Origin: Octopus vulgaris
Lineage: Eukaryota
Direction: 5' to 3'
Assembly: GCA_951406725.2 (NCBI GenBank)
Contig: OX597820.1
Span: 20,956,001 to 21,020,000 of the forward strand
DNA length: 64,000 nucleotides
This document shows positions 13,896 through 54,069 of this stretch, piece by piece (positions within the stretch are counted from its first letter, which is position 1; every line of letters begins with the position of its first letter). The notes below the pieces were generated by a model that was not told the origin of the DNA, did not search any database, and worked only from the letters and a program-made list of their open reading frames with translations. The position numbers and the translations under genes were made by a program.

Positions 13896-14356
13896 CTTCA
13901 GGCAAGGTATTTGCTTGCAGAATACTGCTTGAGGAAAACTCACCCGACCCATGCTAGCATGGAGAAAAGGTGAACATAAAAAAACGATGATGATGATTAA
14001 GACTATTTGTCATATTACAATAGAAATCCTCTAATCAGATGGGAACTCAAAGAACCATTCAGAGTTGTTTACTCAAGGAAACAACTATTTATTAAAATAG
14101 CAACGTTTGGTCTCTTAACACACAATTTCCAAATCTTTACAGTAAAATTACTTTTGAAATGGAAAACTAATCAAAGTTTACTTTCAAACAAAGAGTTTTT
14201 TTGCTAAACCGAAGAAAATGTTATTTCTGTCTCAGTGATAAATAACAAACCAAGATTTAATCAAATCCTATTAGTTCAGTAAAATATTGCTTTGAAATTA
14301 GAATGTCACAGACTTTGTGCTTTTTTTTTCCAAATATATTTACCGCAACAAAAACA

Positions 14357-14366
14357 ATATATATAC

Positions 14367-14433
<67 letters not shown>

Positions 14434-14612
14434 CACACATACATATATATATACATACATACACATATACATACATACATATATATACATACATACACAT
14501 ATACATACATACATACATATATATATACATACATATATATACACACATACATATATATACATACATACATATATATACATACATACATATATATACATAT
14601 ATATATATACAT

Positions 14613-14643
<31 letters not shown>

Positions 14644-14657
14644 CATATATATATACA

Positions 14658-14689
<32 letters not shown>

Positions 14690-14711
14690 CATATATATAT
14701 ACATACATATA

Positions 14712-14743
<32 letters not shown>

Positions 14744-14848
14744 CACACACATATATATATACATATATATACATATATATACATACATACATACATATAT
14801 ATACATACATACACACACATATATATATATACATATATATACATATAT

Positions 14849-14881
<33 letters not shown>

Positions 14882-14905
14882 TATATACATACATACATAC
14901 ATACA

Positions 14906-14939
<34 letters not shown>

Positions 14940-15063
14940 CATATACATACATATATATATACATACATATACATATACATACATATATATATACATACAT
15001 ATATATATATACATACATATATATATAAACATACATATATACATACATATATACATACATACA

Positions 15064-15103
<40 letters not shown>

Positions 15104-15204
15104 AACATACATATATACATACATATATACATACATACATACATATATATATATACATACATATATGCATACATATATATATATACATACATACATATAT
15201 ACAT
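14357..15204. repeat. ~850-bp compound (TA)n/(TACA)n microsatellite, left flank of the LINE
   Basis: Directly visible; source of the YIYI/MYVC ORFs. Confidence 0.97.
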
Positions 15205-16846
15205 ATGAAGCATAATTCAGCAGTAGGTCCCGATAGGTTCCCTGCTTGTGTCTTGAAGATGTGTCAAAACCAACTTGCACCCCCTCTAGCCAATCTGTGG
15301 CGGAACTCATTGGATGCTGGATATATACCAGAAGACCTTCTATCCCAGTCTGTTGTCCCAGTTTTCAAAAAAGGAAACAAATCGCTTGCCGTGAATTACC
15401 GTCCAATCTCACTCACCTCTCATATCATCAAGGTATTTGAGAGGGTGCTGAGATCGCGTATGACTCACTTCCTTGAGAGTCATAATATGCTGAACCCCAA
15501 CCAGCATGGATTCCGTAATGGGAGAGATTGCCTGACGCAGCTACTGCATCATTTTGATGACATTTTGAGAGCCTTGGGAGAGGGTTCCAACACTGATGTC
15601 ATCTACCTTGATTTCAGCAAGGCCTTTGACAGGGTTGATCATAAGATCCTTCTGAGAAAGCTGTCCAATATTGGTGTCACTGGAAAGCTGCTGCAATGGA
15701 TCAAGTGCTTCCTCTCTAACAGAACCCAACATGTTGTAGTCGAAGGAGTCAAATCCAGCCCAGCCAAAGTCAGCAGTGGTGTCCCACAAGGCACTGTGTT
15801 GGGCCCACTTCTCTTCATCATCTACATAAATGATATTACTGACACCATCAAACACAGCAACATCAGAACCTTCGCTGATGATTCCAAGCTCCAGAAGGTC
15901 ATCAATGGCGTGGATGACCGAATAAACCTTCAGTCAGACCTACTAGCTGTTGTCCAATGGGCGGAAAAGAATAACATGTTGCTAAATGAAGACAAATTCG
16001 AACTGATCCACTTTGGAAGGGAGGACGCTCTGAAACTCCCATACTCTCTTCCTTCTGGAGAAATTCTCATGGCATCCAACAACATCAGAGACCTGGGAGT
16101 AACAGTGGACAACAACATAAGCTGGGCTACACATATAAGCAGCAAAGTTGACATGGCCCGCAGAATGTGTTCCTGGATTCTCAGAACCTTCCAGTCGAGA
16201 GATTCCCACGCCATTATCCTTCTTTTCTCCACTTTTGCCCGACCCCACCTTGAATACTGCTGTCCACTGTGGTCTCCCTACACAAAACAAAATATTATGA
16301 GAATTGAAGCTCCCCAAAGGTCAATCACAAAAAAGATAGATGGCCTGTCAGACCTTGACTACTGGGGTAGACTAGAGAAGCTGAAATTGTATTCACTCCA
16401 ACGACGCCGTGAACGCTACATTATCTGTATGATGTGGAAAATATTCCATCAGCACTGTCCGAATGATGTTGGCATCACCTTCAAAATGCATCCAAGGCTT
16501 GGACCACGTGCCATCCGTCCACAACAAAAATCTAAATCGCATCACATAACGACAATACGGCACAACTATTTCACCTCAATTGGACCCGCTCTCTTCAACA
16601 TTACACCAGGACACGTCAAAAAAGAAACTGACCACACAAAATTCAAGAAGTCTTTGGACAAATTCCTTCAAACAGTACCGGACAAACCATCCACACCCGG
16701 ATATGTCTCCGCAAACAATAACTCTCTGCTCGAATGGGCCTTGGTGCCCAAATCCTGAACTGAAAGACTTCGCCAGGTGGTGCTATTAAGTTAGACATGG
16801 CCTGGGCCAATACTGGCCAAAAACCTTTCTAAGTTATTCTAAGTTA
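15205..16846 (+). mobile_element. 5'-truncated, apparently young CR1/L2-group LINE with an uninterrupted RT ORF (15205-16758, 517 aa)
   Basis: Motifs [51 protein letters not shown], and a CR1-type C-terminus [13 protein letters not shown]...[10 protein letters not shown]. No endonuclease domain (truncated). Short 3'UTR ends in (TTCTAAGTTA)x2 at 16827-16846. Confidence 0.93.
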
Positions 16847-18903: not shown

Positions 18904-20553
18904 CTTTACTACCCACAAGGGGCTAAACATAGAGGGGACAAACGGATTAAGTCGATTACATCGACCCAGTGTGAAACTGGTACTTTGTTTATCGACCCCG
19001 AGAGGATGAAAGGCAAAGTCGACCTCGGCGGAATTTGAACTCAGAACGTAACGACAGACGAAATACGGCTAAGCATTTCACCTGGCGCGCTAACGTTTCT
19101 GCCAGCTCGCCGCCTTGATATATATATATGGAACAAAAACACAATAGAGGACAATAAAATCATTCAGACAGATAGACAATACAAAGGCAGACAAGAGAAA
19201 CAATAATTAGAAGGACAGGCAAAAACAGACAGGTCATTCATGGCCTTCTTTCTTCAGTCAAGTACCAGACGTCACAACCATTTCAGGCAGTTACACTTGA
19301 GATGGCTTGATCTGGTTGCCCCAAAAATGTCTAAGCTAAGAGCATAAGACCCCTCTGTAAGAAAGCTAGCAAATAGATGCATATAGGATAAAGACCCCCC
19401 CCTTCGGTCATGAATAACCACATGATTGCATCTAGAAAGTTTCCCTCTGAGGCACGAGTCTGGGCAAGATTGTTTATGGAAGACCAGCAGTCACCCATGC
19501 ATACCAGCATCCCCGCTCTCCACACCACCAATGTTATCCAAGGGAAAGGCAAAGGCCAATAAGGCACTCTACAGCTGAGTGAACTGAAGCCACATGAAAT
19601 AAAGTGTCTTGCTCAAGAACACAACACACAGCCCAGTCCAGGAATAGAACTCACTACCTCATGATTTTGGGCCTGGTGCTCTAACCACTGAGCCATGCCT
19701 ATGTATATATATATGCGTGTGTATGTTGAGTGTATATAAGTACAATAAACTGAGAAAACTACTTTAAACGACTGAAAAATAACCCCAAACCTTTATGGCT
19801 TAACTATTTTATTACGCATGTAAGAAAAATGAATCCCTCCCAGTGAGTAATGACTTTGTCTCAAGTGCAACTCCTTGAATTAAGGAATTTCTTGAAATCG
19901 TATTTTTATGTGTTTTGGCCTAGAAGTGTGAGGGAGTTTCCATGCAGTGTGGTTGGTCTGTTTTTTTTTCTTTGTTTTTTCTTTTGCATGTTAGTCATTT
20001 GCTTGTTATTTTTATTGTATTTTGTTTACAGGTAATGATTTTCGTGTGGGTCACATTAAACAATGCATGAATGTGTGGGTGTTGGTAAATCAATGCTGTA
20101 TCTTATTTTACGACAAGTAAAAAAAATAACAATAATCTAAATATTTCAGTCAGTTGAATGGGTGTGGTGTCCATACAAGAGGCATATATAAATGTTTTCT
20201 TACTGAAACATGCAGAAAATAACTTATTTATCATTGTACAAACCTACTATCTTAAAGATTGTGTATTTGGGATGGACATTGTGTTTCGGCTAGAGTGATA
20301 AATTGGTGTATTGCATGGCTTTGCATATGTGTATCTGTCTGTATTATATATGTTTATATATGAATATAGATTTGGTGAAACAAACAAGAAAATAGAAAAA
20401 CGGCCACGATCAGTTGGTGCTTTTTACATGCCAGTGGCACAGGTGCCAGGGGAGGCTGGCAACGGCCACGATCCGATGGTACTTTTTATGTGCCACCAGC
20501 ACAGAAGCCAGTCAAAGACATTTTTTTTTAAATATAAAAGCGTGCAAACTTAC

Positions 20554-20809
20554 GAAATCCTTCTGTAAATTCTTTGAGGGTAAGATATCCGTTCTTATCA
20601 TCATCTAAAATGTCGAATACTTGTTCCAACGCTTCAGGAGGAAGGGACAACTCTGGTTGTAGTCTCTGTAAGTCATACTTATTGACAAAACCTTTCCCTT
20701 CTTTGTCACATAGTATAAACAGTTCCCGTGACTTTTTATACTGCATGTCTTCTAACTCCCCTACAGTGAGGTTTGAACTCCCCATGGTTCCAGTTTCGGC
20801 TTCATACAT
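20554..20809 (-). CDS. CRACR2A: CRACR2A/EFCAB4B (Rab46)-like gene, first coding exon (EF-hand pair)
   Basis: Translates MYEAE...KSRELFILCDKEGKGFVNKYDLQRLQPELSLPPEALEQVFDILDDDKNGYLTLKEFTEGF. This parallels the CRACR2A N-terminus as I recall it ([24 protein letters not shown]...[25 protein letters not shown]). Donor GTAAGT at 20553-20548 (phase 1). In-frame TAG upstream at 20941-20939. Candidate acceptors: TTTTTCAG before 20971, or CCTACAG before 20816. Confidence 0.9.
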
Positions 20810-21044
20810 TGTTAAGCTGTAGGAAATCCGACTATGAACCAGAATTAATTGATTTGAACTTTTTTGTTTACATAAGTTTTGCCAAAATTTAGAAGTAACA
20901 AAGGAGTGTATTCTTCTAAGGTGTAGGACTTTTGAAGGCTATCATTTTGTTCTTTTATTCTGAACGTCTATCTGAAAAACAACAAAATAAAAATTCTATT
21001 AAATATGGTTTCATACATACATACATATATATATATATAAAATT

Positions 21045-22749: not shown

Positions 22750-23042
22750 GTATGTGTGTGTGTGTGTGAGTGTGTGCATGTGTGTGTTTCCTTTTGTCTT
22801 ACTTTTGTAGATCCATAATTAAGTTGTTAGGAAAAATATGAGGAATATCGTTGTTTTCAACATAAAATATGAAAATTTGCAAGCAAACATAAATGCATAC
22901 ATGGACAATAAAGAACCGTTTATACAAGTTTTCCCTGCCACTTACATGCGTTTGTTGTTCAAATGTCAGCTCATTGGCTGAATATATTTTTCTTCAGAAA
23001 AACTGTTCACTACAAAATTTGTTAATTTAATATACCATTCAT

Positions 23043-23335
23043 GGAGGCGCAATAGCCCAGTCGTTAGGGCAGCGAACTCACGGTCAAAGGATCGCAGTTT
23101 CGATTCTCAGACTGGCATTGTGTGTGTTTATTGAGCGAAAACACCTAAAACTCACGAGGCTCTGGCAGGGAGTGGTGGCGACCCCTGTTGTACTCTTTCG
23201 CCCCAACTTTCTCTCACTCTTTCTTCCTGTTTCTTGAGTAATGCTGTGATGGACTGGCGTCCTGTCCAGCTGGGGGAACACATACGCCACAGAAACTGGG
23301 CCTATGAGCCTGGCTGGGCTGGAAAAGGGTGAAAA
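23043..23335 (+). mobile_element. SINE family E (tRNA head plus V-domain-like CTGCGATGGACTGGCGTCCTGTCCAG)
   Basis: A/B boxes present; copies at 36458-36760(+), 38605-38910(+), 53745-54048(-). Confidence 0.85.
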
Positions 23336-35816: not shown

Positions 35817-37089
35817 CTTACAGGTCCAGGGATCCAATTCTAATCTATGTATGGTGTTACTTGCTGTCAATAAATAAATACAATAGGGTCCAGTGCACTG
35901 ACTTGACTGGCAGTCTCACAGGTAGGGGCCCAATTCTGATCTATGTATGCTATCTGCTGTCAAGAAATAAACACAACCATGTCCATTGCACTGATTTTTG
36001 TCGAGGACCTATAATACTACTAAGACAGTTGCTGGGAAATTGGTAAATTTGTTCAGCTAAGCTTATACCTAATGGTGAGACTAGCTGAATGAAAAGTCAC
36101 ACTGAAGTTTGAATTTGTGTTATTGCAATAGAGAAAAAATGTGGACAAAAGAGGTATAATAGAAAGTTGCAAGGCCTGTGAATTGTAAACTGCAAAATGA
36201 CTTGTTGAAGTTAATGAATGAGAAATTGCTTGTGCCACAGATCACTGTGTTTCACAGTCTGACCTGCAGATCAGGTTGTGGAGTAGGAAAATGTGTAAAG
36301 AAAAGCCGTAGACAAAAACAGAAGAGAAAAACAAGAGCTGCTGAGGCAATGATCAAAAGAGACAAAAATCTGTAGAAATAAAGGCATGTAAAAATTCCAG
36401 AGAAAAGCCATAGTGAGGAAGTATAAAAAGAAAAATGGAAAGATAGTGAGAAAAAGTGAGGCGCAATGGCCCAGTGGTTAGGGCAGCAGGCTCGCGGTCG
36501 GAGGATCATGGTTTCGATTCCCAGACCGGGCATTGTGTGTGTTTATTGAGCGAAAACACCTAAAAAGCTCCACGAGGCTCTGGCGGGGGCTGGTGGCGAC
36601 CCCTGTTGTACTCTTTCACCACAACTTTCTCTCACTCTCTCTTCCTGTTTCTTGAGTAACGTTGCGACGGACTGGTGTCCTGTCCAGCTGGGGGGAACAC
36701 ATACCCCACAGAAACCGGGAAACCAGGCCAATGAGCCTGGCTAGACTTGAAAAGGGCGAAAAAAAAAAGTGAGAAAAGTAGTAGAATAAAGCAAAGAGAA
36801 AACTGACACTTTCTGTTATAACATGTATTATAACAGGCATTTTGGTCTACCTCATGAATTTCTCTTGTAAATGAGAATGAAAGTAATTTCAGGAAATGGC
36901 AAATTAACGGTGAAATCTAGCTAAACAGAATCTCAGTCAATGTTGAATTTATGTTGGTTTAGCAGACAAGAAATGCATAATAGAAGGTGCGTGGTTTATA
37001 CAGAATAAGTTGCAAGATAGCTTGTATAAAGAATAATAAGTAACTGAAAGCTACATAGCTTGTGAATTGTAAACTATGAAATTTATATA

Positions 37090-37549: not shown

Positions 37550-39275
37550 TTCTTTGAAAAAGCTTTAATGGTTTGTAACAGAAGTCTAAGCTGCAATGAA
37601 AAGGCTTGTAACAGTAAATTGTACATCCATTCATATTTTCAAAGTTCATGAAACACATGTCAAAGATGGTTTAGTTTTTCGAATCTCTAATTTAAAATAA
37701 ACTGTACTGACATCTATCAGAACAGTTGTTTTCAAACTAGTCCATTGCAGGAGGGAATAATTTATTTCTTCTGTACAGACATACATCTTTCAATCGCAAT
37801 CCTAATTTTGTAACAAGTAACTCAATGACAGATATTTCAAACATTTCTTGAAATAGAATGGTAAGAGCATTTTTAGTGGACAAATTGATTAAATGTAGTT
37901 CTACTGTTGATATATAATAATAAAAATACATTTTTGCCAGCTGAGTGGACTGGAGTAACGTGAAATGAAGTGTTTTGCTCAAGAACACAACGCGTCGCCC
38001 AGTCCAGGAATCGAAACCACAATCTTACGATTATGATGCTGACACCCTAACGACTAAGCCATGCACCTCCGCCATTATATTTTTATAATTAAATATAAGT
38101 AGGAATTGTAAAAAAAAGAAATTGTTCAAAAATTATGTGTATTGTAAAAGTATAACTAATTAATTGCACATGGATGCTAACAACAAAATCCTATAAGAAC
38201 CCTAGTTGAGAAAAACTGCAATGGAATAATTAACATGGAGCTGAATATCAAAAAGTGTTCACAACAAAGTTCATAAATCAAGATAAGAATTATAGTTCAT
38301 CCTCACTCACCTTCGTCTATAGAAAGAATAAATATAATTCTCATATTTCCTTAACTTCTTGACATTAGAACCAGTTATAGAAATCTATGTAAATTTCCTA
38401 CTTAACAACTTATAGAAACTATTTTAAAGTAGGGCAAGAATAGTTAAGACCGAGAAAAATTGTCTTGAATAGCATGTACATTTTTTCATTTTTCTTTTAT
38501 TTTTATTTACAGGTAATCAAGCAAAAGTTATAATTTTAAAATATAATTAATGATTAAGGTCCAGAAGTGGATTAACATTAAAATAAAGTATAAGAAATAA
38601 AAAGTGGAGGCATGATGGCCCAGTGGTTAGGGCAGAGAACTCACAGTAGGAGGATTACGGTTTCGATTCCCAGACCAGGCGTTGTGTGTGTTTATTGATC
38701 GTAAACACCTAAAAGTTCCACAAGGCTCCAGCAGGGGGAGCCAGCGACCCCTGTTGTACTCTTTTGCTACAACTTTCCCCTCACTCTCTCTTCTTGTTTC
38801 TTGAGTAACACTGAGATGAACTTGTGTCCCATCCAGCTGGGGGGAACACATACGACACAGAAACCAGGAAACCGGGCCCATGAGCCGGGCTAGGCTTGAA
38901 AAGGGTGAAGCTTATCATTTTTTTATAAGAAATAAAATACTTTCCACTACATATTTATTGATGCATATACAAAGAAGGGTGCGGCTAAATTATAAACACA
39001 TGATTCACGCAGCATATGAGGTGGATTGTTTGAACAAAGTCTTATTTTAGGCAAACACAAGGAAGATACAGAAAAAAATATATATATAAAGGATGTGTGA
39101 AAACAAACAAATTGGTCATTGTCAAGAAATTTGCACTTATTTATTCAAGCTAAGATATGTAAAATTTTAATGAGGTAATAACGACAATTACATGAATGTT
39201 TTAGAAAGAGTTCATGAACTATGCAATAGCTGATATAAGCAGGAAACAGCACAAAACATAGGCATAGGTTTTTAA

Positions 39276-51835: not shown

Positions 51836-53104
51836 GTGTAAGTCATTTAATGGTGTATCTCAAGGCAAAATGCAGATGTAAATAATAGCTAGTAACATAT
51901 TAGGTCATAAATCTCTTGGATAGTAAAAGGCAGAAACCTATTTGCAGAACACATAGCATGCATTTTCTGTATCTATGACATACGTGTTATTAAATTATAA
52001 TTACATTAGCTTTGAAATATTCTTTTGAATGACATATTTGTCAATGCTTCTACATCTTTATTCTACAGGTAAACAGACATACTTGTCTTTCTTATTTCAT
52101 TATTGCCCACAAGGGGCTAAACATAGAGGGGACAAACAAGCAGACAAACGGATTAAGTCGATTGCATTGACCCAAGTGCGTAACTGGTACTTATTTAATC
52201 GACCCCAAAAGGATGAAAGGCAAAGTCAACCTCAGCAGAATTTGAACTCAGAACGTAACGGCAGACAAAATACCGCTAAGCATTTTGCCTGGCATGCTAA
52301 TGCTTCTGCCAGCTCGCTGCGTTTGTCTTTCTTGTGAAATTAAAGGACTTAAAGTAAATTTAGCATAATTGGTAGCATGCCTCTCATGGTTTACAAAAGA
52401 AACATGGTTCAAGTCCCACAGGTAGTTTTCGGCCATTTTCCAATCTAAAGGGATTTTATCCCAACATATTACAAACTATTATTTATAGCAGCATTTGGTT
52501 TGTGAGTTATTGTTAAACGATTTATTTGCATATTTCCTAAGGGTTCTAAATTTATACTATAACAAGAAAATTGTAGCAAAGCTGCATGTTAGTGGTGTCA
52601 CATGTGGCATGCATGTTTTATTTTTCTCAGTTTTATTTTGATATGCACATTGTGTTTTTATTCTTCTCTTCCATTTTATGAATTCAGTGTGCTCATGCAC
52701 ATTATGTGTTTATACTTTTCTTTCTGGTTCCTAATCAAAACATTTTACAGATCACAACCATCTCACGAACCTGTGTTCATGAGTGCTTATGCTCTGGTGC
52801 TTGTGAAAAAATATTAAAGAGTTTAATAATTGTCACCATCAAGAAAATTGTCTACACACACACTTAACTTGATAGGATAATCTTATTCTTACAGCAGGTA
52901 ATAAAATATTTCATAGCACTCCCAAAGTGCAAGGGCTAAATTACAAAACTAGCACATATATTGATAAGAAATATCAAAGTAGAAAAGCTGTGGCCGTAAC
53001 TGGCAAAGGTCAGCTAGTGAAACAAATACTCAATTAAATTACATTTTTAATAGTTAGTTAGAATTCTTTTTATATTTAAACCTTTCTTAAAAGATTGTTA
53101 AAAG

Positions 53105-53386
53105 ATGCAATTCTAAATTTTTGAGATGAGGTATTCATATGATGTATTTACTTTAGTCGGAGTGCATCCTCATTTTGATTGCTGTTTTCACTAAGTTTCA
53201 GCTGTGTACACTCCAGCCTTCTTCAGGTGTTTTGTGTTATGACATTTTTTTGTGAATTCACCTTAGTGCCTTGCCTGGAATTGATGTCAGAATCTCTAGG
53301 TAACTGCACCACATTAACCAATGCTTTTATCCACTATGCTATTCTTGTAGGCAGTGACAGAGTGAATTTTTAAGCTTTATAAACCT
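53105..53386 (-). mobile_element. Retrozyme-like monomer, left copy (Pol III A box plus minimal hammerhead)
   Basis: Minus strand: A box TAGCATAGTGG (53341-53331), degenerate B box, then CAC-CUGAAGA-A-GGCUG..CAGCU-GAAA-CU-UA-GUG (53229-53189). Confidence 0.6.
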
Positions 53387-53398
53387 GTTGCTTATAAA

Positions 53399-53735
53399 CT
53401 TAATATAGAGCAGTCACCTAGGTTTTCTGAGTTCAATCCTTAGCAAGATACTATGGTTAATTCACATAAAAAAATCAACTGAAGCAAAAAAACATCATGA
53501 CACAAGACACTTGAAGAATGCTGGAGAGTACATAGCAAAATGTAGTGAAAACAATGATCAAGATGAGGACACTAGTTCAGCTAAAGTAAACACAAAGTGA
53601 ATTCCTCATCTCTAATATATAGAATTGTATTATCCAATTGGTATGGAACTGACATAAGACATCAATGATGACATTAGGTTTATAAAGCTTTAAAATTTAC
53701 TGTCACTGCCTATGGGCATAGCATAGAGGATAAAA
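53399..53735 (+). mobile_element. Retrozyme-like monomer, right copy, circularly permuted
   Basis: B box GAGTTCAATCC (53429-53439), decayed hammerhead CAC-UUGAAGA-A-UGCUG..UAGCA-AAA-UG-UA-GUG (53508-53547), then the segment containing the A box TAGCATAGAGG (53719-53729) at the end instead of the start. Confidence 0.6.
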
Positions 53736-53744
53736 ACGATAAAC

Positions 53745-54048
53745 GTCGCCCTTTTCAAGCCTAGCTAGGCTTGTGGGCTCGGTTTCCTGGTTTCTGTGGC
53801 GTATGTATTCCCCCCAGCTGGACGGGACGCCAGTCCATCGCAGCGTTACTCAAGAAACAGGAAGAGAGAGCGAGGAAAAGTTGTGGCAAAAGAGTACAAC
53901 AGGGGTCGCCACCACTCCCTGCCAGAGCCTCATGGAGCTTTTAGGTGTTTACGATCAATAAACACACACAACGCTCGGTCTGGGAATCAAAACCACAATC
54001 CTCCGACTGTGAGTCCTCTGCCCTAACCACTGGGCCATTGTGCCTCCA
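53745..54048 (-). mobile_element. SINE family E
   Basis: Reverse complement of 23043-23335; abuts the right retrozyme-like monomer. Confidence 0.85.
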
Positions 54049-54069
54049 CATATATTTATATATATATAT

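Follow-up and report, generated by a model that had tools for sequence, protein, structure and literature searches.

The repeat at positions 53105-53735 of a 64,000-nucleotide stretch of the Octopus vulgaris contig OX597820.1 (the whole stretch is called the window below) is likely a pair of head-to-head, decayed end repeats of a Penelope-like element (PLE) from which the coding part is deleted, and was likely inserted in a single event by the enzyme of a full-length relative. We consider it highly probable that this is a non-autonomous, ORF-deleted PLE, made by target-primed, internally started reverse transcription of an RNA longer than one unit, and with a 5' inversion.

Two inverted-repeat pairs make up the locus, 53105-53320 versus 53399-53630 (BLAST E 4e-34) and 53325-53386 versus 53676-53735 (85%, BLAST E 4e-14), and both were found where a preliminary description of this DNA had placed them. 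Identities between the arms are 164/210 and 53/60, or about 80% overall, plus a 20-bp indel difference. The positions of the Pol III-type boxes also confirmed the segment orders read at that stage, which are C, A box, B box and hammerhead on the minus strand of the left arm and B box, hammerhead, C and A box on the plus strand of the right arm.

The left arm (53105..53386, minus strand) reads as an inverted, 5'-truncated copy of the PLE end repeat (pseudo-LTR, or pLTR) and ends at +2 from the fixed 3' boundary of the family. On the same strand it carries the A box of a tRNA-like segment (53331..53341), a mutated B box (53277..53288), a deletion joint at which ~85 bp are missing compared with the ORF-linked pLTR (53234..53244), a putative minimal type I hammerhead (53189..53229) and the optional ~30-bp PLE "tail" that lies between two clusters of 3' ends (53107..53135). 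The 5'-to-5' joint of the arms (53387..53399) contains 10 extra bp from the start of segment C. The right arm (53400..53735, plus strand) reads as a forward partial tandem, in which a 5'-truncated unit is followed by the start of the next unit, cut by a SINE. Its features, all on the plus strand, are a B box (53429..53439), a deletion joint identical to that of the left arm (53493..53503), a minimal hammerhead predicted to be dead (53508..53547), the tail segment up to the fixed 3' point of the family (53600..53628), 39 bp which in ORF-bearing elements come right after the pLTR (53629..53667) and segment C with a further A box at 53719-53729 (53670..53735), which is the sequence directly behind the PLE ORF end. 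The 39 bp belong to the 5' region of the PLE body and align to two genomic loci, L098 and L062, with the ORF N-terminus next. The ~85-bp deletion joint is present in both window arms and in no other fetched locus. This shared joint makes one template and one insertion event likely, and both arms are thus likely products of a single insertion.

Near-identical, overlapping contigs of two public runs (X2 and X3) span the locus and run across the inversion joint as well as the SINE joint, so that the layout is no assembly artefact; contigs of a third run (X1, guessed to be RNA) match at near identity over 52953-53166 alone. When the arms were used as queries against the 2.8-Gb, 227-contig genome, they returned 1,004 and 753 first-look candidates, of which 40 each were scored, and by these matches the arms appear to belong to a dispersed, old family. 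An exact search with a 35-letter pattern matched 1 copy and is unusable as a copy number.

Two other features of the window were recorded. An exon-like frame at 20528-20938 (minus strand) encodes an EF-hand pair (Pfam EF-hand_7, E 1e-9) and is probably part of a host calcium-binding gene; the hammerhead element lies ~32 kb upstream of it, on that frame's strand. A long open frame at 14302-16758 (plus strand) encodes a LINE-type reverse transcriptase (RVT_1, E 6e-31), is flanked by TA-rich microsatellites and is apparently young and unrelated to the hammerhead element.

The SINE that cuts the right arm (53736..54049, minus strand) is a separate, high-copy, tRNA-headed element outside the PLE. 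Three further near-full-length copies, 84-88% identical, lie in the window at 38604-38922, 36458-36759 and 23042-23332; the summed contig depth of the SINE at 53736-54049 is thousands of times that of its flank, and the best match of its head among 8 tRNA types is tRNA-Lys (z 9.1). The right end of the PLE insertion was lost at the SINE boundary, and the inverted-repeat comparison of the window found nothing left of the right arm beyond 53736-54049. The 3' end of the right arm is therefore set by the SINE, and its near-monomer length is due to chance and marks no natural unit: the sequence suggests that this length is simply the distance from the 5' break to a later SINE insertion. The right arm had been described as one circularly permuted monomer, of which the near-monomer length and the segment order stand and the natural end does not.

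The hammerhead core of the family comprises CUGAAGA, a single unpaired base, helix II (5 bp), GAAA, the ACGU palindrome and helix I (3 bp). The core proposed from the two arms proved to be the family pattern, being intact in 22 of 30 hammerhead-selected copies and in 45 of the 191 distinct hammerhead-like hits overall. Both window hammerheads are mutated, at different positions as had been noted. The left one keeps its core letters, has a broken helix III ACGU palindrome and a G-U pair at 10.1-11.1; in the right one four core or stem positions are changed (C3, G10.1, G12 and C15.2). Both are predicted to be inactive and probably are. They lie on opposite strands, and thus a single transcript cannot carry both in sense.

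The Rfam scan proposed in the preliminary description detected no hammerhead in the window (E<=10) or in 7 loci, intact copies included (E<=1). Stem pair counts over 35 hammerheads were 96% paired, with no compensatory change and no excess over shuffles, and single-strand folds yielded the hammerhead shape with z-scores of only -0.5 to -1.8. With Rfam silent and no covariation, the hammerhead call rests on the match to the published description of the minimal hammerheads of metazoan PLEs (Cervera and De la Peña, 2014; PMC4209133). Shared with these are a short helix I, the unpaired base between 9 and 10.1, G10.1-C11.1, the palindromic 15.2-16.2 pair, the lack of a loop 3, and opposite-strand pairs 100-700 bp apart, whereas helix II has 5-6 bp here and 7-8 bp there. 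Helix I has 3 bp in the window's family and 5 in a sister family. Octopus is not named in the parts of that study covered. By this comparison the family motif appears to be a minimal type I hammerhead within a pLTR, of the PLE type. A canonical type I hammerhead, with a 6-bp helix I, a 4-bp helix II and loop contacts, was considered and rejected, given the 3-bp helix I (5 bp in the sister family), the 5-6-bp helix II and the extra unpaired base. Canonical hammerheads are those assigned to retrozyme arrays (PMC7229834), and the earlier assignment to the design of Sm-alpha repeats and non-LTR retrozymes does not hold for a hammerhead of the minimal PLE type. Minimal PLE hammerheads are described as cleaving weakly and as dimers only (PMC4209133); the octopus motif would act only as a dimer, via its ACGU palindrome.

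A coding partner was found in the same genome, where a query with the RT (reverse transcriptase) piece gave 4,184 first-look candidates, of which 150 were scored. In the sister form, L062 combines a hammerhead and its flanks, a decayed ORF that has RT motifs and, at its C-terminus, an endonuclease region, and a second hammerhead. L089 has a 569-aa open frame with an RVT_1 match and an adjoining inverted, truncated copy. This frame is 40% identical over 575 columns, spanning the endonuclease region, to the protein P0069, which has RVT_1 and GIY-YIG matches, the latter passing the cut-off; homologs of the frame carry RVT_1, PF26215 and, in some cases, GIY-YIG. Pfam gave no direct GIY-YIG match on the octopus frames, which are assigned this domain through the homolog P0069.

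For the window's family, a query containing the ORF end gave 30 loci; in 10 of them, the query included, segment C and the A and/or B box follow the ORF C-terminus directly, and most of these 10 have a hammerhead behind the A/B segment. At the opposite end, a pLTR of the window's family leads into the ORF N-terminus in L098, and it is to this stretch that window positions 53629-53667 align. Linkage to an ORF was thus seen in L062, L089 and L090 for the sister family and in L086, L092-L099 (L098 included), L102 and L085 for the window's family. No intact autonomous full-length copy of the latter was recovered, the linkage coming from ORF ends and starts in separate decayed loci, and the window locus itself has no ORF. 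By these alignments, the "monomer" of the preliminary description is PLE end sequence only, namely the first 39 bp of the body plus the region behind the ORF end, and the whole of it represents the pLTR of a protein-coding PLE with the ORF deleted. The clade name Penelope/Poseidon is assigned from motifs and layout. The claim of an old retroelement family with Pol III-type boxes and a hammerhead was borne out, with "retrozyme" applying only loosely to what is a non-autonomous PLE derivative.

One further arrangement was seen at L098:560-2080, where a short-type pLTR plus ORF N-terminus is inverted relative to an ORF C-terminus plus long-type pLTR within one insertion, as if both ends of one RNA had been primed.

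The ends of the copies were compared in the best-scoring 30 loci of a search with a 64-nt hammerhead-only query (three known already, one of them the query), which, like the other 30-locus searches of this analysis, is a sample of top scorers and not a census. All 30 copies end within -70..+10 of one boundary and none beyond it: 12 at -5..+10 (one doubtful by eye), 13 at -24..-41 and 5 at -50..-70. The first two clusters hold 25 of the 30 copies and bound the ~30-bp optional tail. The short-joint subfamily (n=40, with wider bins) gave a similar picture, with 28 copies in two clusters, 7 ending earlier, 2 between and 3 reading through, two of these three being the references themselves. An inverted copy was present on the 5' side in 15 of the 30 hammerhead-selected loci at a score of at least 40 (119 of 120 control flanks scored <=32), while a direct copy was found upstream in 0 and downstream in 1. 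Among the 191 hammerheads, divergent partners (79) far outnumber convergent ones (4), and 17 have direct neighbours. Short-unit partial tandems occur at L002, L009 and L027. The combination of a partial tandem, an inverted 5' copy and a tail is the published layout of PLEs (PMC8557442; PMC4209133; PMC11167929), and in the anole element RT has two internal start sites, marked by the tail, that lie 111-118 nt inside the ORF (PMC11167929).

The preliminary description had expected random permutation points and tandem arrays. Neither was seen: the 3' ends are fixed, and no array of three or more A/B-hammerhead units was found in the 30 hammerhead-selected loci or among the 191 hits. It had also set fixed 5' and 3' ends, without permutation or arrays, against its own reading; half of that picture was found, in that the 3' ends are fixed. 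Fixed 3' ends refute random permutation but fit a circular template as well, and of the proposed copying from a circular or concatemeric RNA, an RNA of more than one unit stands as our reading of the template.

Two other kinds of tandem were observed. L003/L063 (L063 is G000:C29:1303000-1312000) holds five ~330-bp hammerhead units, arranged in two blocks as an old array, and its inner units have no A/B boxes; the L063 array is a second ORF-deleted derivative of the PLE. A ~220-bp tandem unit of the sister family, in which hammerhead and tail are followed by the ORF start and a hammerhead again, occurs at L016:1500-1860 and L019:1490-2030 and is a third such derivative.

The best surviving alternative, which we regard as unlikely, is that the ORF-less unit is a true retrozyme, in which hammerhead-cut monomers give ~300-nt circles and the PLE RT rolls past one unit from a fixed site. 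This could account for the partial tandems of the short unit and for the short-type copies, whose starts are scattered 24-92 nt upstream of the A box, in some cases across the unit joint, and it is also compatible with the fixed 3' ends; circles have been proposed for PLEs themselves (PMC4209133) and demonstrated for canonical retrozymes (PMC7229834). However, direct neighbours are few (1 of 30 hammerhead-selected loci; 17 of 191 hammerheads), no array of at least three units was seen in these samples, and the long-type copies begin at a defined 5' point, whereas a circle has none. The weak, dimer-only cleavage reported for minimal hammerheads (PMC4209133) also speaks against it, as does the anole PLE, which is reported to insert without needing cleavage and for which no reads ended at the cut (PMC11167929).

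In each of two diverged PLE families the A/B-box segment follows the ORF end at an equivalent position, and the intervening sequence is homologous; by position and flank, the two segments are thus homologous. Likeness to tRNA, measured against 8 tRNA types from the genome (shuffle z), is 9-12 in the sister family and weak (3.9-4.6) in the window's family. ARAGORN called no tRNA either in the window or in any of 10 loci, and Rfam called none in the loci scanned.

The 5' ends were placed in 30 sister-family loci selected by the segment alone and in 30 loci of the window's family, from which 2 without an A-box match were dropped. In the sister family, 27 of 30 copies stop short of the ORF end and 3 continue into the ORF; 17 of the 30 have their start 7-14 nt ahead of the A box, and the other 10 score 19-50 owing to weak extensions. 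Long-type copies of the window's family start 0-6 nt before the A box in 12 of 14 cases; among the 6 unclassified copies, 5 have their start no more than 9 nt away, whereas none of the 8 short-type copies starts there. Neither window arm starts at this pile-up site. Six sister-family copies from the hammerhead-only search extend to the A box, and 5 of them, judged by eye, appear to stop near it, a small sample. A Pol III-started RNA 5' end is the simplest reading of the pile-up, and the A/B segment inside the pLTR is likely a Pol III promoter that gives short, pLTR-only, SINE-like copies. The pile-up could alternatively reflect fold-back at a small palindrome, or RT stalling at a tRNA-like fold. 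Depletion of T4 runs was rejected as a sign of Pol III transcription, the ORF being equally poor in T-runs.

The turning point of several sister-family inversions (L149:1280-1500, L155, L162, L168 and L175) is a short palindrome that lies just upstream of the A box, which suggests snap-back priming at that point.

Fusion of an independent tRNA SINE to a PLE end, giving an Sm-alpha-like element, with the ORF-linked examples as secondary insertions, is highly improbable. Most segment-selected copies do start near the 5' end of the segment, as SINEs would, and Sm-alpha is described as combining a Pol III promoter with a hammerhead (PMC6765202). The copies linked to an ORF largely refute it, since the segment keeps its position behind the ORF end, and its flank, in both diverged families; moreover, a hammerhead follows downstream by pattern in 24 of 30 segment hits and the other 6 enter the same PLE-type spacer by eye, none having a different SINE body. 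That the two window arms are unrelated insertions which landed side by side is the least likely reading of all, for although the arms are only about 80% identical and differ by the 20-bp indel, they have in common a deletion joint that no other fetched locus showed, and the family usually occurs as 5'-to-5' pairs.

Under the preferred reading of a non-autonomous PLE insertion, an RNA longer than one unit would have been transcribed from a tandem source copy, and the PLE RT-endonuclease would have nicked AT-rich DNA. Reverse transcription would then begin internally, at a fixed site ~120 nt behind the hammerhead, by analogy with the anole element, for which an internal start site was demonstrated in vitro (PMC11167929). 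Copying would have stopped within the upstream unit, and a truncated copy would have been joined in inverted orientation on the 5' side; a later SINE insertion would have cut the right arm, probably with loss of the remainder. Across the family, Pol III initiation at the tRNA-derived pLTR segment would likely yield short, pLTR-only RNAs that are taken up by the PLE enzyme and give rise to SINE-like elements.

The closest known systems are the Penelope/Poseidon PLEs (for example Poseidon_Ac; PMC11167929, PMC8557442), as described there. Shared with them are an ORF of RT followed by a GIY-YIG-type domain, a hammerhead in the pLTR, two 3'-end sites ~30-40 bp apart (the tail), and a partial tandem with an inverted, 5'-truncated copy. 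The sister family has an ATG within the hammerhead core, close to where the ORF of the anole element starts, at stem II (PMC11167929). In contrast to these PLEs, the octopus elements add the tRNA-derived A/B-box segment between ORF end and hammerhead, and the window unit has no ORF. Metazoan non-LTR retrozymes (PMC7229834; bioRxiv 10.64898/2026.07.22.740005) share an ORF-less ~300-bp unit, a type I hammerhead and kinship to PLE pLTRs; the preprint derives animal retrozymes from PLE pLTRs and accepts minimal hammerheads too. The retrozymes of PMC7229834 are described with canonical hammerheads, arrays and expression of circles, whereas the octopus family has a minimal hammerhead and arrays of the unit were not found in the loci searched; head-to-tail arrays with complete consecutive hammerheads are rare in the family and absent from the window locus, where the two hammerheads lie on opposite strands. 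Schistosome Sm-alpha/Sj-alpha repeats (PMC6765202) share a Pol III-type promoter and a hammerhead in a short unit, and Schistosoma mansoni is reported to have canonical hammerheads besides minimal PLE ones (PMC4209133). In the octopus, unlike Sm-alpha, the promoter-like segment is part of the coding PLE's own end, and insertions show PLE inversions and tails.

Within the parts of the sources covered by the literature search, no account of a tRNA-type promoter inside a pLTR came up. Within that scope, the tRNA-type A/B segment inside the PLE end is the one feature of the family without a described precedent. Octopus tRNA SINEs were reportedly described by Ohshima and Okada in 1994. The evidence leaves evenly poised the proposal that octopus Poseidon-type PLEs captured a tRNA gene fragment before the two families split, so that the coding element would contain a built-in SINE, with a Pol III start in the pLTR and an RNA carrying the hammerhead and the RT start, copied by its own enzyme.

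Overall, the window locus is an ordinary dead PLE stub with a minimal hammerhead, of a known kind, and the family is of modest importance. It illustrates that apparent circular permutation can arise from PLE partial tandems and later damage, no circle being needed, and it connects repeats of the Sm-alpha design, which combine Pol III boxes and a hammerhead, with a named autonomous partner in their own genome. If true, the built-in SINE would be a direct way for an autonomous PLE to give rise to Pol III-plus-hammerhead elements like Sm-alpha. SINEs are reported to make up 11.6% of the O. vulgaris genome, most recently active SINE families being unclassified (PMC13282606), and part of this large fraction may be PLE end repeats.
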